Assembly: GCA_050253415.1 (NCBI GenBank)
Contig: JBFWJC010000002.1
Location: forward strand, 704,725 to 768,724
Direction: 5' to 3'
Origin: Pedobacter sp.
Lineage (GTDB): Bacteria > Desulfobacterota > Desulfuromonadia > Desulfuromonadales > Syntrophotaleaceae
Length of the DNA stretch: 64,000 nt
In this document: positions 30,511 through 45,875 of the stretch, one piece after another
How positions within the stretch are numbered: position 1 is the stretch's first letter
Layout of the letters: each line of letters starts with the position of its first letter
Notes under the pieces: model-generated
Seen by the model: only the letters and a program-made list of their open reading frames with translations
What the model was told of the DNA's origin: nothing
Database searches by the model: none
Translations under genes and position numbers: made by a program

Positions 30511-31695
30511 TCAATCCTTCTCGCGGAAAACGTCGCTGGCGGCCTGCTGTGCCAGACGATAAATTTCGGGCAGCGGCAGGCCGCTGCTGTTTGCCAGATT
30601 TCGACAGCTTTCAAATTCGGGGGCCAGCCGCAACAGGTGCTGTCCCTCATAAAATAGTTTGATCTGTACTTCGCCCAAGGGCATCTGCAGGTTTTTGACC
30701 TGTCGGCGCAGTTTGAAACGATTGCTATCCTGGGAGCGAACGCCGCTGGCGGTGCTGTCACGCAAAATACGGCGAGCCAGGGCGACAGCCTTGTCCGGCG
30801 GAGCAAGCACTGTAAGGTGTACGCCGGGACGGTTTTTTTTCATCTGCAGGGGGGCGAAGGTCACATCAAGGGCTCCCTCATCCATCAGTCGATCCATCAG
30901 GGCGCCAAGCCACTCCGGGTTGGCATCGTCCAGGTGGCACTCCAGGCAGGTGACGCGGTCCGTTTCTCCTTCCCAGACATCATCCACGGTGCCCAGCAGG
31001 CCGCGCAGCAGGTTGGGCCGATCGTTCAGGTCCCGGTCGCCGGCGCCGTAGCCTATATGCTGCAGGGTCATGGCCGGCAGGCTGCCGAATTCAGCAATTT
31101 CGGCGGCAATGGCGGCGCCGGTCGGGGTGACCAGTTCCACCTCGGTCGGGTCGCCAACGGTGGGTAAGCCCCGCAATATTTCCAAAGTGGCCGGCGCCGG
31201 CAGCGGAAAACTGCCGTGAGCACAGCGCACTGTGCCGCGGGTCAGGGGCAGGGGGGCACAGATGATGCGGTCGGGGGCCAGAAGGTCGAGTCCGATGGCG
31301 GCGCCGACAATGTCGACGATGGAGTCGATGGCGCCGACCTCGTGAAAATGTACCTGGTCCAGCGCGCGGCCATGGATTTTCGCTTCGGCTTCACCGATGC
31401 GTCGAAAGATTCGGCGCGCCAGATCGGCAACTGCTGGCTTCAAGGCGCTTTCGGCCAGCATTCCGTCGATGTCCCGCCAAGTGCGATGGTGATGCTGCTC
31501 TGCGTGTTCAACAATAATCTTGCTTGCGGCTATGTGTTGGCGTTGGGTGCGTTGCTGCTGCAGGCGGTAGCCTGCTACCGGTAACTTGGATAGTTCGTTC
31601 TGGATGGTTTCCAGCGGAACGCCCAGATCGACCAGCAAACCGAGGAACATATCGCCGGAAATGCCTGCAAAGGTATCCAGAAACAAAAGGGTCAT
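30511..31695 (-). CDS. larC: Nickel-pincer cofactor nickel insertase
   Basis: GISGDM, HFHEVGAIDSIVD, ELVTPTGAA and MKKNRPG motifs. Confidence 0.94.
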   Translation of the reverse strand: MTLLFLDTFAGISGDMFLGLLVDLGVPLETIQNELSKLPVAGYRLQQQRTQRQHIAASKIIVEHAEQHHHRTWRDIDGMLAESALKPAVADLARRIFRRIGEAEAKIHGRALDQVHFHEVGAIDSIVDIVGAAIGLDLLAPDRIICAPLPLTRGTVRCAHGSFPLPAPATLEILRGLPTVGDPTEVELVTPTGAAIAAEIAEFGSLPAMTLQHIGYGAGDRDLNDRPNLLRGLLGTVDDVWEGETDRVTCLECHLDDANPEWLGALMDRLMDEGALDVTFAPLQMKKNRPGVHLTVLAPPDKAVALARRILRDSTASGVRSQDSNRFKLRRQVKNLQMPLGEVQIKLFYEGQHLLRLAPEFESCRNLANSSGLPLPEIYRLAQQAASDVFREKD

Positions 31696-32450
31696 GGCTG
31701 CTCCTGTCGGTTGATGCGGGATGCGGCGCAGGCTGCGCCGAAACCATTGTCGATATTGACCACCGTCACACCGCTGGCGCAGGAGTTGAGCATGCCTAGC
31801 AGCGCTGCCACGCCGCCGAAACTGGCGCCGTAACCGATTGAGGTCGGCACGGCGATAACCGGTGCCGCAACCAGACCACCGATCACCGAGGGCAGCGCGC
31901 CTTCCATGCCGGCCACGGCAATCACCACCGATGCTCGCCGTAATTGGTCGAGGTGCGCAAGCAGGCGGTGTAGCCCCGCTACGCCGACATCGACCAATTC
32001 TTCGACGTTATTGCCGAGCATGCGTGTCACTGTGGCCGCTTCGCGCGCAACGGGTAAATCCGAGGTGCCGGCGCAGACCACCAGAATGGTTCCGCGGCCG
32101 GTTGCCGCAATCGGGTGCCGAACAATGGCGAGGGTGCGGCCCAGAGGGTCGAATTCCGCTTCGGGCCATCGCTCTGTCAGGGTGGTGGCTTTATCGGCAG
32201 TAAGGCGGGTCACCAGCACATTGTTGCCGCCGTTGAGAAGTCCCTCGGTAATGCGCAATATCTGTCCGGGTGTTTTCCCTTCGCCGAAAATGACCTCTGC
32301 ACTGCCCTGGCGCAAGCCGCGATGATGATCGATCAAGGCATCTCCGACATCCTCGAAGGGCAGGGTAGCCAGTCTGGTCAGGCCGTCCTCTACGGACACT
32401 TCCCCATGACGGATGGCATTCAGAAGTTTTTGCAGTTGTTTGGGATGCAT
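31692..32450 (-). CDS. larB: Nickel-pincer cofactor biosynthesis carboxylase/hydrolase
   Basis: AGTSDLPVA, DVGVAGLHRL, AGMEGAL and NIDNGFGA motifs. Start refined to ATG 32450. Confidence 0.94.
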   Translation of the reverse strand: MHPKQLQKLLNAIRHGEVSVEDGLTRLATLPFEDVGDALIDHHRGLRQGSAEVIFGEGKTPGQILRITEGLLNGGNNVLVTRLTADKATTLTERWPEAEFDPLGRTLAIVRHPIAATGRGTILVVCAGTSDLPVAREAATVTRMLGNNVEELVDVGVAGLHRLLAHLDQLRRASVVIAVAGMEGALPSVIGGLVAAPVIAVPTSIGYGASFGGVAALLGMLNSCASGVTVVNIDNGFGAACAASRINRQEQP

Positions 32451-32587
32451 GATGGTCCTCGCGCGGGATGAAGACCCAAAAGATAGCAATTCGGGCAGCA
32501 AATTCAAAGGGTAAAAGTAGCTGGTGTCTATCCGGTAGCTCAGGATGGAAACAAGTTTCGGGGCTTCAGGTGGAGCAAGCGTATTTT

Positions 32588-33682
32588 TTAGAACAGGGCG
32601 TCGATGGTGTCGAAGTCGATGGCGGTTTCGGCCAGCTTTTGCAGCAGGCTGATTTTTTCCTTGTCCTCTGGGTGGATTTTGGCCGTATCGTTGGCGATGG
32701 TTGAAAACACCTCAGCGCTGCTGAGTTTTTCCACGCGCATGTAGGGGATGTTGCTGCGGTCGAGGATCTGTTGAGTGACTTCGGATGTGGGATACAGCCC
32801 GGGGATAGCCAGGGCCACGATTTTAGAGCGGTATTCCGGAATATTGTACAACGACGCCAGGGTGACCAGTAATTCATTGCGCGTACTGGTGACGATGATC
32901 AGGGTCGAATCTTCCAACAAGTCGGCAACGCGTTGGGTGGAGGCTGCGCCAAGGTGAACGTGGTGAATGATGTGATGCTCTGCATCCATGTCGCCCTTGA
33001 GAGAGGAGTTGAGCAGATGGGCAATGTGTTTGACGGTCGGGTTGGCGAGAATCGGCGAATAGTTGAATCCCCCTATGACCTGGAACGGCATATTGGCAAA
33101 GGCAATGCCGAGATATTTCAGGGTAGTATCGCGTTTGTGCGGGAGTAGTTTATTCACCAGTACCAAGCGCAGATCGGCATGTTTTTGCTGGCACAGAGCA
33201 TAATTCAGGTACACGTTGTCGATCACCCGGCCAATGCCGGCGTCGCTTACCATCAGCATGGGGGCATCGAGCAGGTGGGCCACGTCCGGATTACTGAGGC
33301 TGGCGACGGAGCCGACCCCCAGGTGCCCTGCGCCTTCAATGACCAGGAAGTCGCACCGCCTGGAGAGTTGTTCTGCGGCCGCCGTGATGCGGTTTGTCAG
33401 GGCCTCCGCCGTGATTTTCCCATCGAGTAGCTGGCGGGTTGATTCGGCTTGCAGCACCACCGGCGACATGAAGTCGAGGTCGTCCTCCAGGTCGAATATC
33501 TCCGCAATCAGTGCAGCATCCAGGTCGACCAGGCGCCCTTTGTAAATAGTCGGCTTGGGCCCCAACGGCTTCATGAACCCGACCCGTTTGTACTTTTTTC
33601 GCGCCATGTGCAGCAAAGAGATGCTGGTGGTGGTCTTGCCACATTCCTGTCCGGTTGCGGCAACAAAAATCTTTTTGGTCAC
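32588..33682 (-). CDS. BioD-like P-loop + DRTGG domain protein (Pta N-terminal-like, stand-alone)
   Basis: IFVAATGQECGKT, GFMKP and LVIEGAG motifs with a degenerate DRTGG-like C-terminal half. Start at GTG 33682 is uncertain. Confidence 0.8.
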   Translation of the reverse strand: MTKKIFVAATGQECGKTTTSISLLHMARKKYKRVGFMKPLGPKPTIYKGRLVDLDAALIAEIFDLEDDLDFMSPVVLQAESTRQLLDGKITAEALTNRITAAAEQLSRRCDFLVIEGAGHLGVGSVASLSNPDVAHLLDAPMLMVSDAGIGRVIDNVYLNYALCQQKHADLRLVLVNKLLPHKRDTTLKYLGIAFANMPFQVIGGFNYSPILANPTVKHIAHLLNSSLKGDMDAEHHIIHHVHLGAASTQRVADLLEDSTLIIVTSTRNELLVTLASLYNIPEYRSKIVALAIPGLYPTSEVTQQILDRSNIPYMRVEKLSSAEVFSTIANDTAKIHPEDKEKISLLQKLAETAIDFDTIDALF

Positions 33683-33862
33683 GGCCCATTCCTTCAAAAG
33701 GGAAGAACGCACATAAAACCCGATGCTGAATCTGCCTGGCCATTATAGGACACGATCTCCGTGCTTTCAAAAACTAAAAAGCGATTTCGGTATTTTATCC
33801 GGAAATTTAATGGATTCATTTGTATACGATGACTTTGTACCATGAAGCGTTCGGTAAACAGG

Positions 33863-33906
33863 TTGACAGCGCCTGATTTGTTTCGTTATATTCCATTGGA
33901 ATAGCG
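33863..33906 (+). promoter_or_regulatory. Sigma70-like promoter overlapped by a ModE-like palindrome, upstream of the TonB-dependent receptor
   Basis: TTGACA (33863) -18 nt- TATATT (33887). CGTTATATT-CCATT-GGAATAGCG at 33884-33906. Confidence 0.62.
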
Positions 33907-34008
33907 TTTTGATTAAAAATATGTTACTTGGAGGGTGATTAGCCGTGTCGTGCGACAGCGGCTTTTATTGGATAGATCTTATCTCATGAGGATGGAGGAG
34001 AGCAGGAA

Positions 34009-35934
34009 ATGATGAGGAAGAAAGTTCAGTTGATCACACTTTTGGCTTGCGCCCTGGTCTTTGGCGGTGTGGCTAATCTGTGTGCGGCGACCGCCGACGA
34101 CGGTGTGTATCATCTTGGTGAAGTGGTGGTGTCCAGTGAGTCTTCGATCGTTGAATCAGTTGGGGTGACCCATAAAGTTTCGGCAGAAGAGATCGAGAAG
34201 CGCGGTGTTCGCTCCCTTGACGAAGCATTGAACCTGTTGCCCGGTGTGCAGGTAAGGGTCGGTGGGGATGGTGCTCCGCGACTCCAGATGCGCGGTTTCC
34301 GTACCCGGCACATCAAACTGCTGCTCAACGGTACCCCCTTCAATAGTACTTATGACGGTCAGTTCGATCCGGCAACAATTTCTGTGGAAAACATTGCCGA
34401 AATCGTTGTTACCACCGGTGCTACCTCTTCCCTCTATGGATCCGGCGGTAATGCCGGGGTCATCAATATTATCACCAAGAAGGGCACCAAAGGAGCTCAC
34501 GGCTCCGTTGGCGTCGAACTGGGCTCCTGGGATACGAGTTTGCTGCGCGGCACCGCCTCCTACGGCGCTGATAAGTACGATGTTTTGGTCAGTGGCAGCC
34601 TTTATGATCAGGATAGCTATGAGCTTTCTGATCATTTCTCGCCGACCAAATACGAGGATGGCGACGAGCGCGAAAACAGTGATCGCCAGCGCGACAACCT
34701 GTTTGTTAATGTCGGGGTTACCCCGACGGACGACACCATGATCGGGGCGACGTTTACCTATCTTGCAGGGGATCGCGGCAAGCCGGCGACCACCATTCTT
34801 GATGATTTTACCAGCAAGAAACAGAAGTTCGAACGGGAGGATGATTTGGAGGAGTTCAACGCCCAGTTGGCGTTGAACCATAACTTCAGCGGACCTGTCA
34901 GTCTCAAGGGGTGGGCCTTTTTTAACTCTCTGGACATGGTCGAGACCGAATACAAGGATAATACCTATAGTTCAATTAAGTCTCAGCTCGATTCGAGTAC
35001 CGAGATTTCCGGTGCCAATCTTCAACTGGCCTACGATCTGCAGAAATACGGCAATGCCACCCTTGGTCTGATGATGGAAAATGACGATTGGGAGGCGGAA
35101 GACACTCTCTCTGGCGACACGGAAGATAAGGATTTTCAGCTCTACTCTGTAAATTTTGAATATGAAGTCAAGCCTCTTAACGATATGGGTGCTGTGCTTG
35201 GTCTTGGCTATCATTGGCAGGATCGCAGTGAAAAGGACGAAGAGGACTATTCCTATCTTATCGGTCTTTATTACGATCTCTTTGACGGCACCCGCTTGAA
35301 AGCTTCCCATGCCCGCAAGATTCGCTTCCCCACCCTGCGCGACCTTTATTCCAGCGATGGTAATGAGGATCTCGGTTGCGAGGTGACCTGGCATTCTGAG
35401 GTCGGTATTGAGCAGGCCCTGCCGGCAGCAACCACGTTGTCGTTAACCGGTTTCTATATCGATGTTGAAGATTACATTGCCAAGGATGGATCACAACGTC
35501 AGAATTTTGAAGAATACGAGTTTAAAGGCATTGAAGTGCTGGTTGAAAACCGCTATTTCGCCAAGCTTTTGCTGCGGGCGGGGTATACCTATCTTGATAC
35601 CGAGGACAAGTCTTCCGACCTTGTCGATGAAGTAAACAATAATCCCAAGCACAAGGCAACGCTCGAGGCGACTTACCAATTGCCATGGCGCATGTCCATC
35701 TATGGCAGTGCTATGTATGTGGCCGAATCCTATACTTATAGCAGCGACAATACTGTGCAGAAGCGCCTTCCCGAGTATGTGGTCTGCGATGTCCGCATTA
35801 ACAAGAGTGCTGCCAATGGTGCCCTTGACCTTTATTTTGGTATCAATAATATGTTCGATGCCGACTACGCACCGACCTACGGCCTGCCTCAGCCTGGTCG
35901 TTACATGTATGGCGGGGTGACCTGGAAGTTCTAA
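34009..35934 (+). CDS. TonB-dependent outer-membrane receptor
   Basis: Signal peptide, TonB box (LGEVVVS), plug motifs (LNLLPGV, MRG, IAEIVV...LYGSGGNAGVINIITKK) and C-terminal NMFD...GRYMYGGVTWKF. Confidence 0.95.
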   Translation: MMRKKVQLITLLACALVFGGVANLCAATADDGVYHLGEVVVSSESSIVESVGVTHKVSAEEIEKRGVRSLDEALNLLPGVQVRVGGDGAPRLQMRGFRTRHIKLLLNGTPFNSTYDGQFDPATISVENIAEIVVTTGATSSLYGSGGNAGVINIITKKGTKGAHGSVGVELGSWDTSLLRGTASYGADKYDVLVSGSLYDQDSYELSDHFSPTKYEDGDERENSDRQRDNLFVNVGVTPTDDTMIGATFTYLAGDRGKPATTILDDFTSKKQKFEREDDLEEFNAQLALNHNFSGPVSLKGWAFFNSLDMVETEYKDNTYSSIKSQLDSSTEISGANLQLAYDLQKYGNATLGLMMENDDWEAEDTLSGDTEDKDFQLYSVNFEYEVKPLNDMGAVLGLGYHWQDRSEKDEEDYSYLIGLYYDLFDGTRLKASHARKIRFPTLRDLYSSDGNEDLGCEVTWHSEVGIEQALPAATTLSLTGFYIDVEDYIAKDGSQRQNFEEYEFKGIEVLVENRYFAKLLLRAGYTYLDTEDKSSDLVDEVNNNPKHKATLEATYQLPWRMSIYGSAMYVAESYTYSSDNTVQKRLPEYVVCDVRINKSAANGALDLYFGINNMFDADYAPTYGLPQPGRYMYGGVTWKF

Positions 35935-35965
35935 AACAGGCACGAATCGGTTATGCCATTAAAAT

Positions 35966-36004
35966 AAGCGGGCCGGATTCCGAAACGGGATCCGGCCGCT
36001 TTTT
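35966..36004 (+). terminator. Intrinsic terminator after the TonB-dependent receptor
   Basis: GCGGGCCGGATTCC-GAAAC-GGGATCCGGCCGC-TTTTT. Confidence 0.8.
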
Positions 36005-36060
36005 ATTCTCATTTCCACCCGTTTGTGCATCCCTGAAACTATCCATAATCGGGTAAATGT

Positions 36061-36104
36061 TTGACTTGGTCATTGTTTTTCGCTATATTCCGCCATTAAT
36101 AACG
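36061..36104 (+). promoter_or_regulatory. Sigma70-like promoter overlapped by a ModE-like palindrome, upstream of the ECF operon
   Basis: TTGACT -17 nt- TATATT. CGCTATATT-N6-TTAATAACG at 36081-36104. Confidence 0.68.
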
Positions 36105-36190
36105 CATTGAAAAATTCTCCTTCGGGGGAGATGCTTTTATGAATTCTTTGGGAAAAACCGCCTTAGATCCGGCAGTCTGGATAGAAGTGG

Positions 36191-37561
36191 ATGGATGTCC
36201 TTTTGCAACTCAAGAACTTTTCCTTTGCTTATCCAGGGATAGCTAAGGATATCTTGCATGGTGTCAACCTCGCGATCGAGCCGGGGTGTTGCTATTGTCT
36301 GACCGGGGCAACCGGTTCCGGTAAAACGACTCTGGCTCTGGCTTTGAAAGGGCTGTTGGAAAACGATTGCTGCACAGGGGACATCGTGCCTCCCGCGGCG
36401 TCTGACTTGGCCGACTTTCGGGTTGGTCTGGTATTGCAAAATCCTGAAACCCAGCTGCTGGCCACCACTGTCGGTGCCGAGGTGGCTTTTGGTCTCGAAA
36501 ATCTCTGCGTCGACCCCCAGGCTATGCCGGAGCGGGTCGAGGCCGCCCTATCTCTCGTTGATCTCCGCAAACCCCTCGATTATCCCGTTGCCATGCTGTC
36601 CATGGGACAGAAATACCGCTTGCTGATAGCGGCGTTGCTGGTCATGGAACCTCAGTTGTTGATACTCGATGAACCTGCGGCGCAGCTCGACCCAGAGGGG
36701 TTGTCGGCCCTCTGCGATATCCTTTCCATTTTGAAGTCCAGGGGGGTTGCCGTGGTGTTATGTGAGCACCACCCCGGACCGTTACTTGAGCTGGTGGATC
36801 ATTTCTGGCAACTAGACTGCGACGGCAGGCTTTCTCCTGGGCGTTGGCAGGCACCCTGCGAGTTGCAGACTCCTTCGGTGTCGCAAGGTGTCGGGGTTCT
36901 TTCCGACGCTCCGATTCTGCTTCAGGTGCGGGATCTGACTTTTATGGGGTATGGGGATAAGCCGGTTTGGGATGGCGTTTCCTTTGACATCAGGCGCGGG
37001 CAGTGTGTCGTTATAACGGGCATGAACGGAACGGGAAAGACCACTCTTTTGCGAGTGCTTGCCGGGTTTCTCAAGCCGGGAAGCGGCAATATCCGGATCT
37101 TCAATGCCGAACCGGATCCCCGTTTGTTGCGTCGCAGGCTGGGGTGCCTGTTTCAGAATCCCCATAAACAGATTTTTGAAAACACCGTGCGCGAGGAGAT
37201 TGCCTTTCCCTTGAAACGATTCGGTTGGCCTTCGGAAGAACGTACCGCCCGTATCGAAGAGACCCTACGTCTGTGCGGTATTGAAAATCTCATCGACGAT
37301 TCGCCGCATAAACTCAGTTACGGTCAAAAACACCTGGTGGCTATTGCTTCGGTATTGGCACCTGCTCCGGAGATGCTTTTAATGGATGATCCCTTTGCCG
37401 GTCTTGACGGTGCGCGCCAGCGGGATGTGATGAGGGTTCTGGCCGACTGGAACAGGGAACAGGGAGTCACCTTGGTGATGACGTCGCACGACCCCGATCA
37501 AATTCCGGTCTTGGCCGACGGTCATTTGCATATCGAAGGGGGCCACATTGGCTGGCAATAG
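36191..37561 (+). CDS. ECF-type transporter fused double ATPase (EcfA-A')
   Basis: Two Walker A motifs (GATGSGKT, GMNGTGKT), Q-loops LQNPETQL and FQNPHKQI, EVAFGLEN, and LSMGQ/LSYGQ signatures. Confidence 0.9.
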   Translation: MDVLLQLKNFSFAYPGIAKDILHGVNLAIEPGCCYCLTGATGSGKTTLALALKGLLENDCCTGDIVPPAASDLADFRVGLVLQNPETQLLATTVGAEVAFGLENLCVDPQAMPERVEAALSLVDLRKPLDYPVAMLSMGQKYRLLIAALLVMEPQLLILDEPAAQLDPEGLSALCDILSILKSRGVAVVLCEHHPGPLLELVDHFWQLDCDGRLSPGRWQAPCELQTPSVSQGVGVLSDAPILLQVRDLTFMGYGDKPVWDGVSFDIRRGQCVVITGMNGTGKTTLLRVLAGFLKPGSGNIRIFNAEPDPRLLRRRLGCLFQNPHKQIFENTVREEIAFPLKRFGWPSEERTARIEETLRLCGIENLIDDSPHKLSYGQKHLVAIASVLAPAPEMLLMDDPFAGLDGARQRDVMRVLADWNREQGVTLVMTSHDPDQIPVLADGHLHIEGGHIGWQ

Positions 37562-38249
37562 TTTTTTGCGTATGCACGGGGCGTTGGCCCATGGCCAGCG
37601 TCGAGACGACGGCCCCGAAAAGTCCGACAGGGGGCTGCCCTTGCCGGTGGGTGTCAAGATGCTGCTGGCGTTAACCCTTTCCTGTGGGGCTTTTGTGGCC
37701 CGTACCGGAACATTTCTCGGGGGACTTACCGCCGTCAATGCGCTGGTCTTTTTGCTGCTCCGCCCACAGGGCCTGTCCTGGTGGCGGCAAGGGAGATATT
37801 TTCTGGTTCAATCCTCCACCGTCATGGTGCTTTATATTATTCGGTTCCGATCTCTGTCAGGAGTATGGGACGGACTCTTGATTTCCTGGCAGCTTTTTCT
37901 GGCCTTTTGGCCGACCATGGTTTTCGCCAAAACCACTTCGCAAACGAAGATTGTGCGTGCCATGAATCGCGTCATACCGAGCCGTATGTCGTTCGTGCTG
38001 GCCACCTGTCTTAAATTCGCGCCGCACTTGCTGGAAGAAGTGCGGGACATTTACGAAGGGCAGGTATTGCGCGGTGCCAGGATCCTGCCTAAAGATCTGG
38101 TAAAACCGTCGAATTGGCCCGACCTTATGCATTGTGTTGTAGTGCCGGCCGTTGTGCAGGGGATGGCTCTGGCCAGCAATATTGCTCTGGCGGCGCGTGC
38201 ACGCGATTTTGGACTGTACCGCAGGCGTACCTGTTGGCCTGGGGAATAA
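37548..38249 (+). CDS. ECF transporter transmembrane T component (CbiQ/EcfT-like)
   Basis: Hydrophobic N-half plus the two Arg motifs (VLRG and RARDF). Start codon uncertain. Confidence 0.8.
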   Translation: MAGNSFLRMHGALAHGQRRDDGPEKSDRGLPLPVGVKMLLALTLSCGAFVARTGTFLGGLTAVNALVFLLLRPQGLSWWRQGRYFLVQSSTVMVLYIIRFRSLSGVWDGLLISWQLFLAFWPTMVFAKTTSQTKIVRAMNRVIPSRMSFVLATCLKFAPHLLEEVRDIYEGQVLRGARILPKDLVKPSNWPDLMHCVVVPAVVQGMALASNIALAARARDFGLYRRRTCWPGE

Positions 38250-38277
38250 TTTGCCGGCTCCCAAGGAGTTTTGTCGC

Positions 38278-38832
38278 ATGGTCAAGTCGTTTGTGGCGCG
38301 TTTTTCAGACAGTTTTCGCTTGCCTCTCAAGGATGCCTTGTTTCTTGGTTTTTGCGCTGTGTTTGCGGTGCTGGTGCGGGTTGTCCTGCGACTGCATCTG
38401 AGCATCTCCGGGCACGCCATGATTATCAAGATTTTCTTTTTGATGTTGGGCAGGGCGAGCACTCCCTGTCGCTACGGTGCCAGTTTTACGGCGCTGCTGG
38501 CTGGGACGGCAGCCATGTTTCTCGGGTTTGCCAAGGCTGGTCCATTTATAGTCGTCAAATACCTGATGGCGGGTGTGATTATTGACCTTTCGGCCTATTT
38601 CCTGCCGGTACTGTTTAGCAGCTATGTCTTGTGTGCCCTGGTGGCGGCAGTGGCATCGTCCACCAAGTTCGCTACCGCCTACGCAGTTAATGCCATGGTT
38701 GGTATGGATCCGGTGGTAAATATGCAGCGATCCCTTCTGGAAGCGACGGGTGCAGTGATTTTTGGCGTCATCGGTGGTTTGCTGGTGCCGATGGTTGTGC
38801 GACGTCTCAAGGCTTACGGCGTTATTCGATAG
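38278..38832 (+). CDS. Putative ECF substrate-specific S component
   Basis: About 184 aa with roughly six hydrophobic segments, directly after EcfA and EcfT. Conserved-looking LHLSISGH loop. Confidence 0.7.
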   Translation: MVKSFVARFSDSFRLPLKDALFLGFCAVFAVLVRVVLRLHLSISGHAMIIKIFFLMLGRASTPCRYGASFTALLAGTAAMFLGFAKAGPFIVVKYLMAGVIIDLSAYFLPVLFSSYVLCALVAAVASSTKFATAYAVNAMVGMDPVVNMQRSLLEATGAVIFGVIGGLLVPMVVRRLKAYGVIR

Positions 38833-38872
38833 GCAGAGAACAGGGCAGCCTGCGAGCTGCCGGGAGTGAGTA

Positions 38873-39616
38873 ATGATGAAAATTCTTGTATGTATCGACG
38901 ACACGGATAATCTCGAATCACGCGGCACCGGTGATCTGGCGACGGAACTCGCCGAAGAACTCGAAAATCGTGGTTGGGGGCGCAGTAGCTTTGTGACCCG
39001 TCATCAATTGCTGGTGCACCCCGATGTGCCTTACACGTCGCACAATAGCTCCATGTGTTTTGAGGCGGAGATCGATCCTGCTTATCTGGAGTCGCTGATT
39101 TCCTACGCCGGAGAGTATCTGGAGAGAGAAAGTGCCACCGGTTCCGATCCTGGCCTGTGTGTTACTGTCTTGGAACGCCTGGCGGAACCGCAAGCGATGG
39201 TAGATTTCGGGCGCAGTGCCAAAGAAACGGTGCTTAACAAAAAAATGGCCTATGACCTGGCAGAGAAGTTAGGTGTGCACCTTTCCGAGCATGGCGGTAC
39301 CGGGCAGGGCGTGGTCGGTGCATTGGCCGGTATCGGCCTGAGGATGAGTGGCAAGGACGGGCGCATGAAAGGCTGGTTGAAAATCAGCACCGATAACGGG
39401 CTGGCCCGGGTAGGCGATATCTTGGATGAGGTAGATCTGCGGGGTGTTCGCACCATGGCCGGCGAGGTGCTTGGCCACGAAGAAATCGTAGCCGTTGATG
39501 ACAAACCGAAAGCGGTCATGGTCGATGGTGGCACTTATTTGATGGTGTCGCCGGTGGATAATGGTGACGGGGTACGCTGGCGCACCACTCCGCGGCAGCA
39601 ACTCAAGCGGTTTTGA
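38873..39616 (+). CDS. Stand-alone TiaS/DUF1743-like protein (DDTD motif)
   Basis: ILVCIDDTD...GTG, TRHQL..HPDVPYTSHNS, SDPGLC and GGTGQGVVGALAGIG parallel the N-terminal core of TiaS. It appears to lack the C-terminal OB and Zn-ribbon domains. Confidence 0.72.
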   Translation: MMKILVCIDDTDNLESRGTGDLATELAEELENRGWGRSSFVTRHQLLVHPDVPYTSHNSSMCFEAEIDPAYLESLISYAGEYLERESATGSDPGLCVTVLERLAEPQAMVDFGRSAKETVLNKKMAYDLAEKLGVHLSEHGGTGQGVVGALAGIGLRMSGKDGRMKGWLKISTDNGLARVGDILDEVDLRGVRTMAGEVLGHEEIVAVDDKPKAVMVDGGTYLMVSPVDNGDGVRWRTTPRQQLKRF

Positions 39617-39626
39617 GGAGGACGCC

Positions 39627-39830
39627 ATGTGGCATAGCAATAAACACGGAGAACGCGAATTCCGCCATGGCCAGGAAGCCTATAGCCTTGCCGCGGATCA
39701 AGCCGGGGCTTGCCATCACTTTTGCCCCGACGTGGAGGAGGAATGGGCTACCGATGACGAGCGTTCCTGCTACAACTGCCGGCTAAGACGCTGGACAGTT
39801 GCCTCATTCCTTTGCATGCGGCCAGCCTGA
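39627..39830 (+). CDS. Small Cys-rich protein (67 aa)
   Basis: Strong GAGGAGG ribosome-binding site and operon spacing. CHHFCPDVEEE...SCYNCRLRRW...LC contains five Cys. Confidence 0.72.
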   Translation: MWHSNKHGEREFRHGQEAYSLAADQAGACHHFCPDVEEEWATDDERSCYNCRLRRWTVASFLCMRPA

Positions 39831-39859
39831 TCGTTGTTATGAACCATATAGGGGGATCC

Positions 39860-40675
39860 ATGTACACAAGACTGCTGATGGCTGTAATAGTTATGCTGCT
39901 GGGCGCCGGGTGGTCGGCGGCGGAGGATTGGGTTCAGGAAAGTCCGGGACAAAAAGCATACTACGACGCAGATGGCAACTTGGTACGGGTGCTGCTCGAC
40001 ACGGATGGCGACAAAAGGTTCGAAACCGAAGAACTTTACGGGGGGCGGCGTCTTTCCCGGCGCGAAGATCGGGACGGAGACGGCGTCTGGGAGCGCCAGT
40101 TCTCCTGGCAGAAGGATGGTTCGGCCATCCTGGTGGAGGACCGGGGTAAAGGGGCCAGGCAGACAACCTGGTTCGATTCCCGGGGTACCATGATTAAGGT
40201 GGAAAAAGATAAGGATCGCGACGGATGCCCTGAAACCACCTGGCATTATGAAAGGGGAGTGTTGCGGGAGGTTGTCAAAGCCCGTGGTACCTGGTTTTAT
40301 AAGGATGGCCAGATGATTCATGCCGAAATCGATACAGATCGTGATGGCCGGATCGATCGTAAGGAATATTATAGGCAGGGTCATCTGGATCGCGCAGAGG
40401 AGATGAATGCTTCCGGCAAGGTCCGCTGCGTGTGGACCTTTGATACAAGCGGCAGGCCGTTGCGGGCTGAAGAGGATGCCAACGGCGACGGGCGCAGGGA
40501 GACCACCCGCGTTTATCAAAAGGATGGCTCCCAGAGCATGACCGTGGATGCTGATGGAAACGGTACACCCGAACTTCGAGAACATTATTCGGCAAAAGGG
40601 CGGATGATCAGTCGCGAAGAAGATCTGGACGGCGACGGTGTATTTGATTTGCGCACCGGACGCGTTAAGGAGTAA
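39860..40675 (+). CDS. Exported repeat protein with multiple Dx[DN]xDG motifs
   Basis: Signal peptide MYTRLL...WSAA. Repeats DTDGD, DRDGDG, DKDRDG, DTDRDG, DANGDG, DADGNG and DLDGDG. Confidence 0.78.
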   Translation: MYTRLLMAVIVMLLGAGWSAAEDWVQESPGQKAYYDADGNLVRVLLDTDGDKRFETEELYGGRRLSRREDRDGDGVWERQFSWQKDGSAILVEDRGKGARQTTWFDSRGTMIKVEKDKDRDGCPETTWHYERGVLREVVKARGTWFYKDGQMIHAEIDTDRDGRIDRKEYYRQGHLDRAEEMNASGKVRCVWTFDTSGRPLRAEEDANGDGRRETTRVYQKDGSQSMTVDADGNGTPELREHYSAKGRMISREEDLDGDGVFDLRTGRVKE

Positions 40676-40680
40676 GGAAC

Positions 40681-41385
40681 ATGCAGAGCTGGGTTGCTTT
40701 TATGGAAAAAGCCGGTCCCATCGGGATCACTATTCTTTTCTGTTCGGTGATCGCACTGTTTATCATCATCGAACGGGTCCTGGCCTACCGGTCGCTCCGG
40801 TTGAAAGACCCGCGCCTGTTTCATCGTTTGCGCAAACGGGCGCAAGAAGGTCAGTTTTCCGAGGCCGCCACCATGGTCAGGGATGAGCGCCATCCCTGGG
40901 CGGTGGCCATGACAGAGGTTCTGGCACGCCTTGACAGTAAGACCCGCGCTACCGGTCGCACCGAGCTGGAAAAAACCTTCGCCCATGCCGCGACGCGCGA
41001 AGTGCGCAAGATGGAACGCTTTCTCCCCACCCTGTATCTTATCGCCAGTATCTCGCCGTTGCTCGGTCTGCTTGGCACGGTGGCGGGCATGATCAAGGCT
41101 TTTCAGGCCATTGAAAACCTCGGCGGTAAAGTCGATTCATCGGTGCTGGCGGGGGGGATATGGGAAGCGATGTTGACCACTGCTCTTGGCCTCGGGGTGG
41201 CTATCCCGGCCATGGTGGCGCATAACTACCTGCAAGGTAAAGTGCATGCCATGGTGGCCGATATGAAGGAAGAAACCGGAGTTTTTCTCGACGCCCTCGA
41301 AGATACCGGGCAGCTCGGAGTCAACAAGGATAAAGGTCTGGCTTCGGTTCATTCCGTGCCCGGTGCTGGCAGGGAGGCTCGATAA
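40681..41385 (+). CDS. exbB: ExbB/TolQ/MotA proton channel
   Basis: SPLLGLLGTVAGMIKAF and LAGGIWEAMLTTALGLGVAIPA motifs. Confidence 0.93.
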   Translation: MQSWVAFMEKAGPIGITILFCSVIALFIIIERVLAYRSLRLKDPRLFHRLRKRAQEGQFSEAATMVRDERHPWAVAMTEVLARLDSKTRATGRTELEKTFAHAATREVRKMERFLPTLYLIASISPLLGLLGTVAGMIKAFQAIENLGGKVDSSVLAGGIWEAMLTTALGLGVAIPAMVAHNYLQGKVHAMVADMKEETGVFLDALEDTGQLGVNKDKGLASVHSVPGAGREAR

Positions 41386-41786
41386 TGGATATCCCGGTTC
41401 GCTCCCAGACGACGGGGTTGAACCTGACCCCTCTTATCGATATCGTATTCCTGCTGCTGGTTTTTTTTCTGCTTACCACGCAATTTATAGAGGAAGACGG
41501 CATCGGTGTGCGGCTGCCGGCGGCCACCGCCAGCACTACCCGCGAGAAGGACGAGATTGCGGTGGCCATCACGCGTGATGGGAAGTTGTTTGTCGCAGGT
41601 CAGCCACTGCCGTTATCCGACCTCGAGCAGAAGCTGCGCAGCCTGCTCGGGGCTGACACAACGGTTGTTATCCGCGGAGACCGGGATGTCCCTTTGCAGA
41701 CAGCGGTTTCTGTCATGGAGCGATCCAAGAAAGCTGGGGCAGTGCGTATTGTCGTTGCAACGCTTGAAGAAGCAGGCTCGCCGTGA
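41385..41786 (+). CDS. exbD: ExbD/TolR
   Basis: LNLTPLIDIVFLLLVFFLL and VIRGDRDV motifs. Confidence 0.93.
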   Translation: MDIPVRSQTTGLNLTPLIDIVFLLLVFFLLTTQFIEEDGIGVRLPAATASTTREKDEIAVAITRDGKLFVAGQPLPLSDLEQKLRSLLGADTTVVIRGDRDVPLQTAVSVMERSKKAGAVRIVVATLEEAGSP

Positions 41787-42523
41787 AGACCTCTCGCACA
41801 TGGATGGCCCTGGGCACATCTCTCACTATACATATAGGCCTGGTGCTGGTCCTCGGTATGGGATTGATGCAACCCCATCGGGTGGTCAATCGCATAGAGG
41901 TCAATCTCGAGGGGGCCGCAGTACCCAGCAGGCCGCCGGGAGTGCAAGCTCCGTCGCCCGTTGCCGGTCCGGAAATGCCTAACTCCGCATCCCTGCCGAC
42001 GTCGACGTCGGTCGCTCCGCATCTGTCTTTGAAGGCACCTTCTGTCGTTGCACCGGCTCCGGCCAATTTCGATGATGATGGAGCGCTTCCGCCGCCGGTT
42101 GCCGGAGGGGTGCCTGGGCCCATCGGTGTACCTCTGCATGCCGTGAGTGGGGGCGGCATGGACGGGGCGGGTTCGGGTAGCGGTCCCGGTGTAGCCGGAG
42201 GTGGGCAAGGTCGGCAGGGAGCAGGACCTTCATCCGCATTGGCCGGCTATCTCAATGCCATAAGGGCCCGCGTGGATGCCGCTAAGCGTTACCCTCAGAT
42301 GGCCCAGCAGCGTCGCCTGGAAGGAGTTGTTGTCGTAACCTTCCGGTTGACCTTCGATGGTCGATTAATGGGTGAGCCTCTGGTCACCAGGAGCTCAGGT
42401 TCAAAGCAGCTCGATAGGGCCGCGTTGCTGGCGGTGCGACGTGGTGCTCCTTATCCTTCCTTTCCATTGAATCCGAAGGATATGAAAGCGCTCGAAATTC
42501 CGGTGAAGTTTTTCCTGCGCTGA
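41783..42523 (+). CDS. tonB: TonB energy transducer
   Basis: N-terminal TM SxxxH (SLTIH), Pro/Gly-rich linker, YP..A...RLEG and RSSGSKQLDRAAL. Confidence 0.9.
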   Translation: MKTSRTWMALGTSLTIHIGLVLVLGMGLMQPHRVVNRIEVNLEGAAVPSRPPGVQAPSPVAGPEMPNSASLPTSTSVAPHLSLKAPSVVAPAPANFDDDGALPPPVAGGVPGPIGVPLHAVSGGGMDGAGSGSGPGVAGGGQGRQGAGPSSALAGYLNAIRARVDAAKRYPQMAQQRRLEGVVVVTFRLTFDGRLMGEPLVTRSSGSKQLDRAALLAVRRGAPYPSFPLNPKDMKALEIPVKFFLR

Positions 42524-42557
42524 GCAGGGGGGCTTATCTGTGAGTCGGTTAAACTGG

Positions 42558-42586
42558 AAAATCCGCAATTAATTGCGGATTTTTTT
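42558..42586 (+). terminator. Perfect palindrome with T-run after tonB
   Basis: AAAATCCGCAATTAATTGCGGATTTT followed by TT. Confidence 0.7.
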
Positions 42587-42676
42587 GTTTAATAGAGAGA
42601 CAAGTAGCGGATTTTTCGTATGCTATGGACATAAGCGTCAACACGCTCCCCAACTTCTCTAGCGAAGGGCTAAGGC

Positions 42677-43921
42677 ATGGGAAAGCATGCAGCATCCACT
42701 CTGGTGGGGATGGACGAAAATGTGCAGTTACCGGTAGAGAGTCTGCCGGCGCAGCACTGGGATGTGATTATTGTCGGAGCAGGACCGGCGGGCTGTGTTG
42801 CGGCCATAGAACTGGCCGGGATGGGGCACCGCGTATTGCTGGCCGACCGGGATTGGTTTCCGCGCGATAAAGTTTGCGGTGACGGACTTACCCCGGGTGC
42901 CATCCGGATTCTGCGGCGTTTGGGGCTTTATGATACGGTAAGAAAAGTTGGACGACACTGCTCGGAGATGAGTGTCTTCAGTCCGGCACATGTTCGTATC
43001 GATGTGCCGGGAGACTATATAACCGTAAGGCGCAAAATTCTTGATCAGCTAATGGTTCGCAAGGCACTTGCTGCCGGGGTGACTTTTGTTCGGGGCACGG
43101 CCGATATTCTGGAATCGCAAGCTGATAGCAAAGCAAACGTGCACTTTGGTGAAGGTCAGGCGGTGCACACCGCAGAATGTTGTCTGTTGGCGACCGGAGG
43201 ACGGCTGGCTCTGGCGCAAAGAGCGGGCCTGGTGACGCATCCAGTTGCCAGCGGAGCAGCGGTTCGTTGTTATATTCGCTCACGTATATCTCTTGATCGA
43301 CTGGTCGTTGCCTGCGAACGCAATATTCTGCCTGGTTACGCCTGGATCTTTCCTGTCGACAAGGATCTGTTCAATGTTGGCTGTGGTCGCTTCATGTACG
43401 GCCGCAACGAAAAGCATGTCAGCCTTCGAAAAGTCTTTGCGGCTTTTGTCGACGAATTTCCTCTGGCCCGGGAACTTTTGAGCCAGGGCGCAATCGAAAC
43501 GCCTTTGAAAGGCGGTGTTCTTCGCAGTGGCTGGCAGCAGGCGGGACCAATGGCCCGCGGGCCTTTTTTAGGCATGGGGGAAATGGTCGGTACAACCTCG
43601 CCTTACACCGGTGAAGGTATAGGCAAGGCCATGCAAAGTGGTGTTCTGTCAGCCAGGCTTGTGCATCGGTGTCTTCTTAAAGGGGAGATGTCCGCATTGC
43701 GGCGTTACCCGGAATATCTTCAACAGCTTGGGGGGTTGCATTACGAAGGGTTCAAGCGTACCCGTCGTTGGTTTTTGCAGCCCTGGTTGGTCGACTTTTT
43801 TGCTCGTCGCATAAACAGAAGTCCCTACCTGTACGAAACTTTCAAAGGTATTCTCCAGGAAAAAAACGACCCCGCGCAGGTCTTCTCCTGCCGCGGGGTT
43901 TGGCGTTCTCTTTGGCACTGA
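42677..43921 (+). CDS. Geranylgeranyl reductase-family FAD oxidoreductase
   Basis: DVIIVGAGPAG, FPRDKVCGDGL, GYAWIFP and PYTGEGI..AM.SG motifs. Confidence 0.88.
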   Translation: MGKHAASTLVGMDENVQLPVESLPAQHWDVIIVGAGPAGCVAAIELAGMGHRVLLADRDWFPRDKVCGDGLTPGAIRILRRLGLYDTVRKVGRHCSEMSVFSPAHVRIDVPGDYITVRRKILDQLMVRKALAAGVTFVRGTADILESQADSKANVHFGEGQAVHTAECCLLATGGRLALAQRAGLVTHPVASGAAVRCYIRSRISLDRLVVACERNILPGYAWIFPVDKDLFNVGCGRFMYGRNEKHVSLRKVFAAFVDEFPLARELLSQGAIETPLKGGVLRSGWQQAGPMARGPFLGMGEMVGTTSPYTGEGIGKAMQSGVLSARLVHRCLLKGEMSALRRYPEYLQQLGGLHYEGFKRTRRWFLQPWLVDFFARRINRSPYLYETFKGILQEKNDPAQVFSCRGVWRSLWH

Positions 43922-43956
43922 TACCTTGGCGTCATCTCCATTATCTTCTGATGCTC

Positions 43957-45087
43957 TCAGTGAAGAGAATTTCCCTGATTCAATGAACGTATCTGGGCTT
44001 CCGTGTAGTCGTCAAACCAGTATGCTTGCGGATTACGTTTGAACGCCAGGAGTTCATCGAGTCTCTGTCTGGAGTCTGCCGGGCGGTGATAGCGGAAAAA
44101 AATCTGATCCTTTGTCAGGCCTGCAACCTCAATTTTACCGGTAACATGAGACATGGCGTACCGACTGCGGCGAGCGAGCCCGGAGCAGGCTTTGAGGGCC
44201 TCGGCAAAAACTCCATAGCCTTTTTCGATGGGGACGGTGTAGGCGGCATTGCCTTCAGTGGGGCGGCATTGGAAAACATAGTAGGGCGCAATGCCGAGAT
44301 ATGACAATTCGTTGAGCAACTTCGATAAAACTCTGGGGTTATCATTGACGCCTTGGATCATGGGCGTCTGATGCATGATACTCACTCCGCATTTTTGTAT
44401 CTGGTCCAGTGCGCGCCGTGCTTCGGGTGTCAGTTCCCTGGGGTGATTGAACTGCGCCATAAGGTAGATCCGTCGATCAGACAAACTATGGGTTTTGAAC
44501 ATCTGCAGAAGTTCCGGATCATCCAGAATGCGAAAAGGATTAAAGGCAAGCATTTTGGTGCCTATGCGAATGATCCGCACGTGATCGATAGCGCGCAACT
44601 GCTCGATTATTTCCGTCAGTTTGTGCGTTGAAAGGAGCAGAGGATCCCCTCCTGTAACAAGCACATTATTGATTTCAGGGTGTTTGCGAATGTATTCCAA
44701 CCCACCGGAAACATCCCTTGCCACTTCCTGATTGTCCTCCATAAAAAGGCGCTTGCGAAAACAGAACCTGCATAAAGCTCCGCAGACATCGCTCACCAGC
44801 AGTACCGCCGTGTCGGCATATTTGTGCTCAAGTCCCGGAGCTTTGGCATAATGAGATTCGCCGGATGCGTCAAGAGCCCCCCAGGGTTCAAGCTCGTCCG
44901 TACTGGGAATAACAATGCGGCGAATAGGATCCTTTGGGTCATCCCAGTCGATGAGTGATTGGTAGTACCCGTTAGTCCGGAAAGCATAGCGTTCTTCGAC
45001 AACGCGCAGATTCTGACGCTGCTTATCGCTCAATGCTTCCAGTTCAGGAATCTGATCAATGCTTGTGATGTACTTCCTGTAGCTCAT
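43957..45087 (-). CDS. KamA-family radical SAM protein (aminomutase-like)
   Basis: GLEHKY, CGALCRFCFRK, LVTGGDPL, IIRIGT, FNHPRE and GVND motifs. Confidence 0.88.
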   Translation of the reverse strand: MSYRKYITSIDQIPELEALSDKQRQNLRVVEERYAFRTNGYYQSLIDWDDPKDPIRRIVIPSTDELEPWGALDASGESHYAKAPGLEHKYADTAVLLVSDVCGALCRFCFRKRLFMEDNQEVARDVSGGLEYIRKHPEINNVLVTGGDPLLLSTHKLTEIIEQLRAIDHVRIIRIGTKMLAFNPFRILDDPELLQMFKTHSLSDRRIYLMAQFNHPRELTPEARRALDQIQKCGVSIMHQTPMIQGVNDNPRVLSKLLNELSYLGIAPYYVFQCRPTEGNAAYTVPIEKGYGVFAEALKACSGLARRSRYAMSHVTGKIEVAGLTKDQIFFRYHRPADSRQRLDELLAFKRNPQAYWFDDYTEAQIRSLNQGNSLH

Positions 45088-45680
45088 GCGTCCTCCTTTC
45101 CCATAATATTACCGGCTCAAAATGGGGGCAGGTGTACCTTGTCCTCGAGATAATCGAGCATATAAGGCTGGGCCTTGAAAATAGGCACTGCACACCGGCA
45201 AAGGGGAATTCGTGGTGTTGGTAGAATGAAAACTGCGGAACGTTTTTGAAAGTGGCTTACTGATTCGAGGTGTTGTGTTTAATTGCGATCCCAGCGTTTT
45301 TATGGCTTGATTTCAGCTATTGTGGCTGATTTTGTTTTATAGAGCATAACACGGTTTTTTAAGTTAATCAACATCTTGCTTCTATCTTGTTTTTCAATAT
45401 ATCACTTGCTGAAATTGTCAGAAAAATAAGCCTAATTTTATTTTTTATCGGTTTGCCTGATAAAAATATATTTTATGTAGCCTTTTTTGGATTATGCATA
45501 CACATGTTGGGGAATGGTGACCTGGGTTTGGTATTTATTTCGATGGGTTGTGCAAAGGGGGTAGGGTCCTTCACTTTTTTGCGAGATATTTTCAAAACAA
45601 CAAAATTAGACACCAAAATAGGTTCTCCAGGGTTATTTTTGGTAAGTAATGGTAAGGTATTTATTATTTTATGAAGCCTA

Positions 45681-45710
45681 TTGACCATAAAAAACTTAGA
45701 GTGATATAGT
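45681..45710 (+). promoter_or_regulatory. Sigma70-like promoter with extended -10
   Basis: TTGACC -18 nt- TATAGT with a TGn extension (TGATATAGT). Confidence 0.55.
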
Positions 45711-45713
45711 GCT

Positions 45714-45875
45714 AAACACTAAATGTGCGACGGGTATTTGTGGGTCGCAGATCGAGTGTTTGACAGTCTCCCCGGCCACTATTCCGAATGTGGCTTTTTT
45801 CTCCTCCTCCTGATATCTGGTCGTTGCTTACGGCCCCCTGGCCAGCGCGCTTATCAGCGGCGCTGGCTTTTTTTT
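45714..45875 (+). ncRNA. Candidate ~160 nt small RNA
   Basis: Promoter upstream, two stem-loops, a single-stranded CTCCTCCTCC tract and the terminator GCCAGCGC...GCGCTGGC-T8. Confidence 0.5.

Follow-up and report, generated by a model that had tools for sequence, protein, structure and literature searches.

The locus described here raises the question of what a bacterium imports through ten adjoining genes that encode a TonB-dependent outer-membrane receptor, an energy-coupling factor (ECF) type importer, an enzyme with a kinase fold, a very small cysteine-containing protein (the Cys protein) and a private ExbB-ExbD-TonB set. The genes lie within a 64-kb stretch of DNA, referred to as the window, that corresponds to G000:C2:704725-768724 in a genome of 4.1 Mb and 18 contigs. 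An earlier note on this DNA had proposed that the cluster responds to molybdenum (Mo) or tungsten (W) and takes up a complexed species of one of these metals. The present analysis indicates that a role in Mo/W-linked uptake plus handling is quite probable, and that the fuller statement, a W/Mo-repressed uptake and handling system with its cargo specified, is an evenly balanced proposition. Free tungstate or molybdate is considered at least as likely a cargo as a complexed species.

All ten co-oriented genes listed in the earlier note are present on the + strand, at or near the positions it gave, as judged from open reading frames (ORFs) and from Pfam and NCBIfam searches. They fill positions 34009-42523 in two units, 34009-35934 and 36191-42523, and the nine genes of the downstream unit are spaced by -14 to +40 nucleotides (nt). 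Relative to the longest ORF, the starts of the putative substrate-binding (S) component and of the repeat protein are better placed at 38278 and 39860, respectively. The genes are as follows.

34009-35934, + strand: TonB-dependent outer-membrane receptor (Plug PF07715 80.1 bits, barrel PF00593 113.3 bits, both over the cut-off)
36191-37561, + strand: fused double ATPase EcfA-A′, 456 amino acids (aa), with two ABC_tran stretches (TIGR01166 cbiO 285 bits, cut-off 211.8)
37548-38249, + strand: ECF T component of the CbiQ family (PF02361 34.6 bits, cut-off 25)
38278-38832, + strand: putative S component, a membrane protein of 184 aa with no family match, whose model resembles ECF S components
38873-39616, + strand: TiaS-kinase-domain (TCKD)-like enzyme of 247 aa with an N-terminal DDTD motif and an extra C-terminal domain (weak sequence matches, Foldseek)
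39627-39830, + strand: Cys protein of 67 aa, acidic, of a new family, with five Cys, four of them invariant (alignment of 35 relatives)
39860-40675, + strand: exported repeat protein with seven EF-hand-like D-x-D-G-D-G loops (EF-hand_5 weak; Atlas leads EF-hand/DUF6802/FG-GAP-like, score 0.93)
40681-41385, + strand: ExbB (MotA_ExbB 109.5 bits)
41385-41786, + strand: ExbD (ExbD 106.6 bits)
41783-42523, + strand: TonB (TonB_C 56 bits)

The loops that had been noticed in the exported repeat protein were confirmed and are EF-hand-like. The proposed division into two transcription units is backed by strong promoter-like sites of the sigma-70 type and by terminator-like hairpins after the receptor and TonB genes, and each -10 hexamer (TATATT) is overlapped by an inverted repeat, as the earlier note had read from the sequence.

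33863-33892, + strand: promoter-like site of unit 1 (TTGACA, 18 nt, TATATT; 11 of 12 matches, top-ranking on the + strand within 33600-42900)
33884-33906: first ModE-like inverted repeat (box 1), 23 nt, overlapping the -10 TATATT of unit 1
35971-35997, + strand: terminator-like hairpin after the receptor gene, unit 1 (12-bp stem, 9 GC pairs, T tail)
36061-36089, + strand: promoter-like site of unit 2 (TTGACT, 17 nt, TATATT; 10 of 12 matches, the second of the two best + strand sites)
36081-36104: second ModE-like inverted repeat (box 2), 24 nt, overlapping the -10 TATATT of unit 2
42556-42585, + strand: terminator-like hairpin after the TonB gene, unit 2 (13-pair stem, T tail)

Promoter-like sites number six in 33600-42900, which equals the shuffle mean of 6.0, so that the weight of the two listed here rests on their position and conservation; the layout TTGAC-N17/18-TATAxT recurs in the promoters of relatives. 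The E. coli-type ModE consensus, CGnTATATA-N6-TATATAnCG in the available portion of Rodionov et al. (2004, PMC545781), is matched by box 2 with three mismatches in 18 positions, and none of 200 shuffles of the upstream region did as well. Box 1 fits this consensus (by eye) if a 5-nt spacer is allowed; it is one base short and was therefore missed by a 24-nt scan, and the orthologous receptor promoters of relatives carry 24-nt boxes. When the window was scanned with up to two mismatches, four matches were found against a shuffle mean of 2.0; box 2 alone stands out, the other two places being intragenic. One left half-site, 10 nt long, stands alone at 49971-49980 on the - strand, just 5′ of a BamD/YfiO-like gene (49154-49960); the genome has 12 such half-sites, and this one is probably due to chance.

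The genome-wide distribution of the boxes connects them with the wtpABC operon. A strict pattern, CGNTATAT-N8-11-ATANCG, occurs six times on the two strands of the 4.1-Mb genome, and three of the six occurrences are at promoters: box 1, box 2, and a box at G000:C3:83211-83234 that precedes wtpA-wtpB-wtpC. In that operon a WtpA gene (455.8 bits, cut-off 355) comes first and is followed by WtpB-like and WtpC-like genes and by a second WtpA. Scored with a weight matrix built from 16 sites of relatives only, box 2 comes out on top genome-wide (35.6 bits), followed by the wtpABC box (22.7 bits), and the rest lie at about 20 bits or below. The third match of this matrix (20.1 bits; L138:3022-3045, equal to G000:C1:1605921-1605944 on the - strand) lies about 430 nt 5′ of a gene for an acetylating acetaldehyde dehydrogenase, which would be a tungsten-independent alternative to aldehyde:ferredoxin oxidoreductase (AOR) enzymes, and could be a chance match. 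A candidate for the cognate regulator is encoded on G000:C1 by a 270-aa ORF with ModE_repress scores of 95-97 bits (cut-off 98.5) and two Mop stretches (122.5 bits, cut-off 55).

Upstream regions of related clusters tell a similar story. A match to the ModE consensus (at most four mismatches in 18) was found in 28 of 42 such regions from several families, and in each of the 28 no more than 4% of shuffles were as good. In other families the matches lie 5′ of the receptor gene (L046-L049, L121, L127; L numbers denote loci of relatives), 5′ of modE (L045), or 5′ of the enzyme gene in Geomonas (L077, L086, L094). The Mo/W link and ModE-type control that the earlier note had put forward thus find support in sequence comparison: in the wtpABC box, the full-length ModE, the 28 upstream regions, and the neighbouring genes and riboswitches of relatives described below.

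Conservation was assessed within the order from 151 sampled genomes, of which 27 contain the enzyme. Twenty loci were taken from 19 of the 26 other enzyme-bearing genomes, seven with short contigs or fragmentary matches being left out, and genes were detected here and in the 80 wider loci discussed below by tblastn with more than 50% coverage. The receptor, AA′, T, S and enzyme genes occur together in 17 of the 20 order loci and the Cys protein in 16, whereas the repeat protein, ExbB, ExbD and TonB are found in eight, all from the family of the window. A profile search recovered the S component in 23 of the 151 genomes, all among the 27 with the enzyme, and in every one the S gene adjoins the enzyme gene. 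The conserved co-occurrence anticipated by the earlier note therefore stands for a core of receptor, AA′, T, S, enzyme and Cys protein, but the ten genes do not form one conserved unit, as the repeat protein and the ExbB/ExbD/TonB set are restricted to the family. A TonB gene does follow the enzyme or Cys gene in other families as well (L045, L053, L054, L055, L057).

The arrangement of some of these loci brings the core into contact with known Mo/W genes. L045, from a complete genome of another family, encodes in order a tungsten-type AOR, a ThiF/MoeB-like protein, ModE, the receptor, AA′, T, S, the enzyme, TonB, a phosphate-type anion porin, a TupA-like protein and a permease, with MoeA farther downstream. 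L044 has the order HTH_17+PBP_like regulator (possibly TunR-like), porin, TupA-like protein, enzyme and Cys protein, and L055 begins with a two-TOBE protein that is followed by the receptor and the remaining core. A second, different cluster is found in a genome of the window's genus at L041:7229-12060. It encodes a receptor 73% identical to that of the window, an enzyme paralog at 50% identity, a Peripla_BP_2 binding protein and an HdrD-like NarI/4Fe-4S/CCG protein; upstream is a sigma-54 activator, and no ModE-consensus match was found there.

Immediately beside the cluster in the window, on the - strand at 30511-33712 and divergent from the receptor promoter region, lie LarC and LarB, which are nickel-pincer cofactor genes, and an AAA_26/DRTGG gene. 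In four relatives (L042, L043, L050, L051) this trio is situated between the receptor and the ECF unit, divergent from the box-bearing promoter. Such proximity, together with A and T components that score best with cobalt/nickel-type ECF models, could suggest a cargo unrelated to Mo/W: nickel or cobalt for the adjacent LarB/LarC, or else iron or cobalamin, the palindromes then belonging to another regulator or to chance. The trio accompanies the cluster in six of the 20 order loci, all from the window's family, and in none of the 80 wider loci, and a Ni/Co role tied to LarBC is unlikely because the adjacency is confined to one family. Moreover, the S component is not CbiM/NikM-like, and every independent contextual signal concerns Mo/W. 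Control by Fur, NikR or a cobalamin riboswitch, which the earlier note had recognized as contrary to its proposal, was rejected after window scans found no such element in the cluster: there is no Fur box within three mismatches anywhere in the window, NikR-pattern matches (up to three mismatches) occur only at 6350, 12504 and 54317, far from the cluster and no more often than in shuffles, and Rfam detected no riboswitch at gathering scores in the window and none at E ≤ 1 in 33600-46300. A non-Mo/W cargo is accordingly regarded as very improbable.

The most unusual component is the enzyme, which is 83% identical to the hypothetical protein Pcar_2393 of Syntrophotalea carbinolica. Its structural model, computed from an alignment of 26 sequences, has a predicted local distance difference test score (pLDDT) of 90.4, and the nine best Foldseek rows are all chains of TiaS, the archaeal tRNA(Ile2) 2-agmatinylcytidine synthetase (3AMT, 3AMU, 4RVZ, 5XOB), with E values of 9e-10 to 2e-6 over about 156-160 columns and a root-mean-square deviation of 2.4-2.6 Å in the best rows. 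Sequence matches are weak and cover residues 1-158 (Pfam PF22641 25.3 bits, just under the cut-off of 27), and no match was found for the C-terminal 90 residues. The N-terminal 156-160 residues share with TiaS the TCKD fold, the DDTD motif and a threonine: DDTD, S16, G18, T19 and G20 are invariant among 26 relatives, and T19 aligns with TiaS T18, which we take to be the autophosphorylated residue. Residues H44, H49, H57, C62, H136 and H140 are also invariant in the 26-sequence alignment; the His/Cys residues lie in loops, and TiaS has R, N, R and S opposite the first four. The C-terminal tRNA-binding domains of TiaS are an OB fold and a zinc ribbon. The TiaS-like character claimed in the earlier note thus holds for the TCKD kinase fold and not for the tRNA-binding domains, which are missing here; the enzyme further differs from TiaS in being bacterial, in its metal-uptake context and in having a small protein partner. 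Two more specific assignments were rejected. TiaS itself is excluded as the match ends near residue 160 and the NF040849 equivalog model gives 27.3 bits against a cut-off of 600, and methanogenesis marker protein 11 (TIGR03280) is excluded by a score of 53.3 bits against 255.8, confined to model positions 132-283.

The Cys protein carries, invariant in 35 relatives, C29, C48, C51, C63, D35, E39, R54 and W56, which are arranged as an acidic stretch (D35, E39) followed by C-Y-N-C-R-x-R-R-W. The window copy has no Pfam match, the best family across the 35 relatives is Fer4_NDSU1 (four members, weakly), and no relative was found in the PDB (best E 0.48). When enzyme and Cys protein were modelled as a complex the score was 0.82, as compared with 0.00 for the best of three controls; 116 of 157 solved complexes scored that high, as did 2 of 215 mismatched pairs, a calibration that applies only roughly since custom alignments were used. 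Contacts were at least 97% concordant between model runs, with a partner pLDDT of at least 86. In the model the acidic loop of the Cys protein (residues 36-43) touches R43, G20, M61 and residues 164-168 of the enzyme, that is, the active-site region of the TCKD fold. The modelling supports the view that the two proteins bind each other, and a role for the enzyme in processing or unloading the cargo, as the earlier note had suggested, is plausible.

The complex model places E39 of the Cys protein in the catalytic pocket of the enzyme, beside R43 and T19/G20. This would allow a speculative extension, to which we attach little probability, wherein the Cys protein acts as a covalent carrier and not just as a chaperone: the enzyme would use ATP to activate E39, a W/Mo species or cofactor intermediate would be attached, and the product would be delivered to MoeA or to the molybdenum/tungsten storage protein (MoSto). 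A loose analogy is offered by LysW, a small zinc-finger carrier, with its ligase LysX. If true, the assembly of W/Mo cofactors would include a carrier-protein step that is new.

The enzyme-Cys pair is distributed well beyond the order and is not tied to the ECF transporter. The enzyme family comprises 821 clusters at 50% identity (E ≤ 0.001). The wider loci mentioned above are the best 80 of 533 confirmed stretches from species-representative genomes, and their hosts belong to Desulfobacterota, Firmicutes (Syntrophomonadaceae, Desulfotomaculaceae, Sporomusa, Clostridium magnum, Neobacillus and others), Chloroflexi and Kiritimatiellales. All 80 contain the enzyme and 51 the Cys protein, with EcfAA′ in 18, the S component in 15, and the T component and the receptor in 14 each; by a looser search a Cys-protein ORF adjoins the enzyme in 67 of 100 loci. 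Syntrophomonadaceae-type loci (L093:6453-8765, L110:6181-8449, L113:6350-8762) show three tandem enzyme paralogs, 34-52% identical to that of the window, before one Cys-protein gene. At L076:8748-9887, from a Geobacter metagenome-assembled genome, the Cys-protein frame has no stop and extends through a twin-arginine signal to a long C-terminal region (379 aa in all), which may reflect gene fusion, an overlooked stop or faulty assembly.

What replaces the ECF module in distant loci was examined by a Pfam scan of neighbours that covered 124 of 258 ORFs from 28 diverse loci, small and distant ORFs being dropped. In 15 of the 28 the enzyme-Cys pair directly follows at least two parts of an importer made up of a FecCD permease, an ATP-binding cassette (ABC) ATPase and a Peripla_BP_2 protein, while an ECF set stands in its place in two (Sporomusa ovata and C. 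magnum). The binding proteins of two such FecCD-type operons, those of L089 and L122, were tested, and for both HI_1472, which we take to be MolA, ranks second among solved relatives (E about 1e-21 to 1e-22). Among the other genes that recur near the enzyme in other phyla are those for MoSto, MoeA, MobB, TupA-like proteins, an anion porin and a molybdopterin oxidoreductase. Riboswitches of the molybdenum/tungsten cofactor (Moco/Wco) type were detected by Rfam in four of eight distant loci scanned; in L089 the aptamer lies 93 nt 5′ of the operon-heading gene, which encodes a Big_5 surface protein.

The MoSto homolog in the window, encoded outside the operon, likewise points to the inorganic metals.

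46142-46948, + strand: MoSto homolog, outside the operon (E 8e-61 to MosB)

It is the one MoSto-type gene annotated within the 64-kb window, and its assignment is clear from E values to MosB (PDB 2OGX_B) and MosA (1e-47) that contrast with 5e-10 to the nearest UMP kinase. The earlier note had placed it about 3.6 kb downstream of the cluster; the gene is real, and its link to the enzyme gene recurs across phyla, with MoSto present in six of the 20 order loci and in 11 of the 80 wider loci, including Firmicutes. The interval between TonB and the MoSto homolog holds, at 42677-45087, genes for a geranylgeranyl-reductase-family flavoprotein and a KamA-family radical SAM aminomutase; the pair is also found in L038, L040 and L052 of the window's genus, and a KamA homolog in L043, from another genus of the same family. 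The remaining 1 kb or so (45088-46141) is low in G+C and contains short ORFs only (the bin 44001-46000 has a G+C fraction of 0.46 as compared with 0.51-0.61 elsewhere in the window); it has no Rfam match at E ≤ 1 and no box. As for the genome as a whole, demand for tungsten appears to be high because six AOR-family genes are present, four of them directly behind Moco/Wco riboswitches, and pterin synthesis is indicated by a true MoaA (387.9 bits, cut-off 284).

These features bear on whether the cluster might serve cofactor salvage, in which a pterin (Moco/Wco, molybdopterin or a precursor) released by other anaerobes would be imported, re-phosphorylated or activated by the enzyme, and held by the Cys protein. 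S components of the fold predicted here normally carry vitamins and cofactor precursors, distant versions of the system are under cofactor-sensing riboswitches, and the chemistry of TiaS targets a pyrimidine ring carbonyl, a group that pterins also possess. Against this, ModE senses the oxyanion rather than the cofactor, the MoSto, TupA/WtpA-type and MolA-like neighbours all concern inorganic metal, and a genome with a true MoaA is not dependent on salvage. On these grounds pterin salvage is judged improbable.

With respect to the transport components, the receptor falls into no substrate-defined subfamily, as all of its 30 NCBIfam matches are under cut-off (the best, a siderophore subfamily, at 142 bits versus 223.5). 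The fused ATPase also scores just under the cut-offs of ECF_ATPase_1 (301 bits, cut-off 315) and ECF_ATPase_2 (295 bits, cut-off 330), and the co-encoding of A/A′ ATPases with a CbiQ-family T component fits an importer of the ECF type (group I). The 184-aa membrane protein has no Pfam or NCBIfam match; its model (pLDDT 84) is helical throughout, and its top ten Foldseek rows are all ECF S components (5EDL, ThiT, PanT, RibU, 4RFS_S, 4HZU_S) with template-modelling (TM) scores of 0.52-0.64, FolT following at rank 15 with a TM score of 0.67. Probabilities in this search reach 1.00, yet every E value is at least 0.013. On the model, the protein is likely to be an ECF S component of a new family.

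A mechanism that would unite these parts can be outlined. When W or Mo is plentiful, full-length ModE would occupy both boxes over the -10 hexamers and keep both units off, and under W/Mo scarcity both units would be transcribed. The receptor, energized by its own ExbB-ExbD-TonB, would pump a Mo/W species across the outer membrane, and the ECF-type importer, consisting of the fused A-A′, T and the new S, would take it across the inner membrane; these two roles are assigned by family membership. In the cytoplasm the enzyme-Cys complex, whose binding is modelled, may use ATP to move the metal on, either to cofactor insertion of the MoeA type or to storage in MoSto. Tungsten seems, from the sequence context, to be the more likely metal because the box is common to wtpABC and not to the ModA genes, TupA-like genes and an AOR gene adjoin the cluster in relatives, and the genome is rich in AOR genes.

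The identity of the cargo is where the present reading departs from the earlier note. That the cargo must be a complexed Mo/W species is not supported as stated, since 15 of the 28 distant loci have the pair behind a FecCD importer and the binding proteins of the two operons tested are MolA-like. According to the part of PMC4031551 available, MolA binds molybdate and tungstate, taking the free oxyanion, and MolBC-A is a low-affinity type II importer. A free oxyanion is favoured because these sister operons carry MolA-like binding proteins, and the form we prefer, with slightly less than even confidence, is tungstate, perhaps molybdate, itself or loosely bound. The competing idea is that the cargo is a metallophore complex or a thio- or poly-metalate from sulfidic habitats; in the cytoplasm the metal would then be released from it by the enzyme-Cys pair, in some cases together with an HdrD-like reductase. 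Bound or chelated cargo stays in play because of the TonB receptor, the vitamin-type fold of the S model and, in the monoderm versions, surface proteins of the Big_5 or S-layer kind, which are the usual equipment for bulky or bound ligands; HdrD-like CCG/4Fe-4S proteins adjoin the enzyme in L041, L066 and L118, flanking the enzyme-Cys pair in the latter two. On the other hand, TonB receptors for unchelated metal ions exist, and no chelator-biosynthesis genes were found among the neighbours in 36 loci scanned with Pfam. A chelated or thio form is on balance considered rather unlikely.

Several observations weigh against a W/Mo-repressed system for the free oxyanion. As to control, box 1 has a non-standard spacer, the ModE-consensus match is absent from 14 of the 42 upstream regions, and many of the 28 positive regions come from close relatives and are non-independent. 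The four best ModA homologs of the genome have no box in the 500 nt upstream, so that the ModE regulon, if real, would be narrow. As to the cargo, the S model resembles six-helix vitamin-type S components (at the E values given above), a class associated with organic ligands; free tungstate is already catered for by anion porins and TupA/WtpA systems in some of the same loci or in the same genome; and Big_5 surface proteins, found in 11 of the 28 distant loci and mostly at the head of the FecCD-type importer, fit a bulkier or bound cargo in the monoderm versions. The best solved relative of the L089 and L122 binding proteins is the unnamed protein 4OVK rather than HI_1472, the rough calibration of the complex score tempers the modelled binding, and we know of no enzymology that predicts an ATP-dependent step on tungstate before MoeA.

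Set beside known systems, the cluster resembles the ModE-repressed modABC, wtpABC and tupABC operons in the type of operator over its promoters, the box being common to the genome's own wtpABC, and in the presumed metal; TupA-like genes are moreover adjacent in relatives. Those operons encode type I ABC importers that rely on a periplasmic binding protein, and have no energized outer-membrane step, whereas the cluster adds a TonB receptor, a private ExbBD-TonB, an ECF importer whose putative S component is new, and a further two cytoplasmic proteins. MolBC-A (H. influenzae HI1470/71 plus MolA) is akin to the sister operons through their FecCD-type permeases and HI_1472-related binding proteins; it is not known to have a TiaS-like partner, and the window for its part has neither a FecCD permease nor a binding protein but an ECF module in their place. 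A third comparison is with BtuB-TonB/BtuFCD and with CbiMNQO/NikMNQO combined with TonB receptors, where, as here, an energized receptor and an ATP-driven importer belong to one regulon under a cargo-sensing repressor or riboswitch. TonB receptors have been linked to Ni/Co ECF systems by comparative genomics, and the A and T components of the cluster belong to the CbiO and CbiQ families found in CbiMNQO/NikMNQO. Its S component is unrelated to CbiM/NikM or BtuF, however, and its regulatory signals are of the Mo/W type.

An orthologous cluster is present in Syntrophotalea carbinolica DSM 2380 and includes Pcar_2397, Pcar_2393 and Pcar_2389. In the available part of the P. carbinolicus genome paper (PMC3543383), Pcar_2397 is given as a channel and Pcar_2389 as a TonB-like protein for an unidentified solute. 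The available part of PMC3766115 names Mo/W transporters under Moco riboswitches only as a category, and PMC13119186, the accessible part of which concerns CbiMNQO and cobalt, was set aside. The statement of the earlier note that no characterized system of this composition is known is in agreement with the literature search, which found no description of the system or of a role for the enzyme family (subscription journals, RegPrecise and the supplements of PMC3766115 were outside the search). What the window adds is the Desulfuromonadales form, in which both units bear ModE-type boxes, the ECF module has a putative S component of a new family, and a private ExbBD-TonB is accompanied by the repeat protein.

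Much of the carbon metabolism of anaerobes runs through enzymes of tungsten and molybdenum, and to our knowledge the only W/Mo uptake routes described are ABC importers for the free oxyanions. The cluster would represent an energized outer-membrane step and an ECF-type inner-membrane step for W/Mo, neither of which was found in the literature searched, and the prediction is directly testable in the sequenced type strain S. carbinolica DSM 2380. If it is true, the enzyme-Cys pair would supply an unrecognized ATP-dependent step that follows import of the metal and precedes its storage or its insertion into the cofactor.

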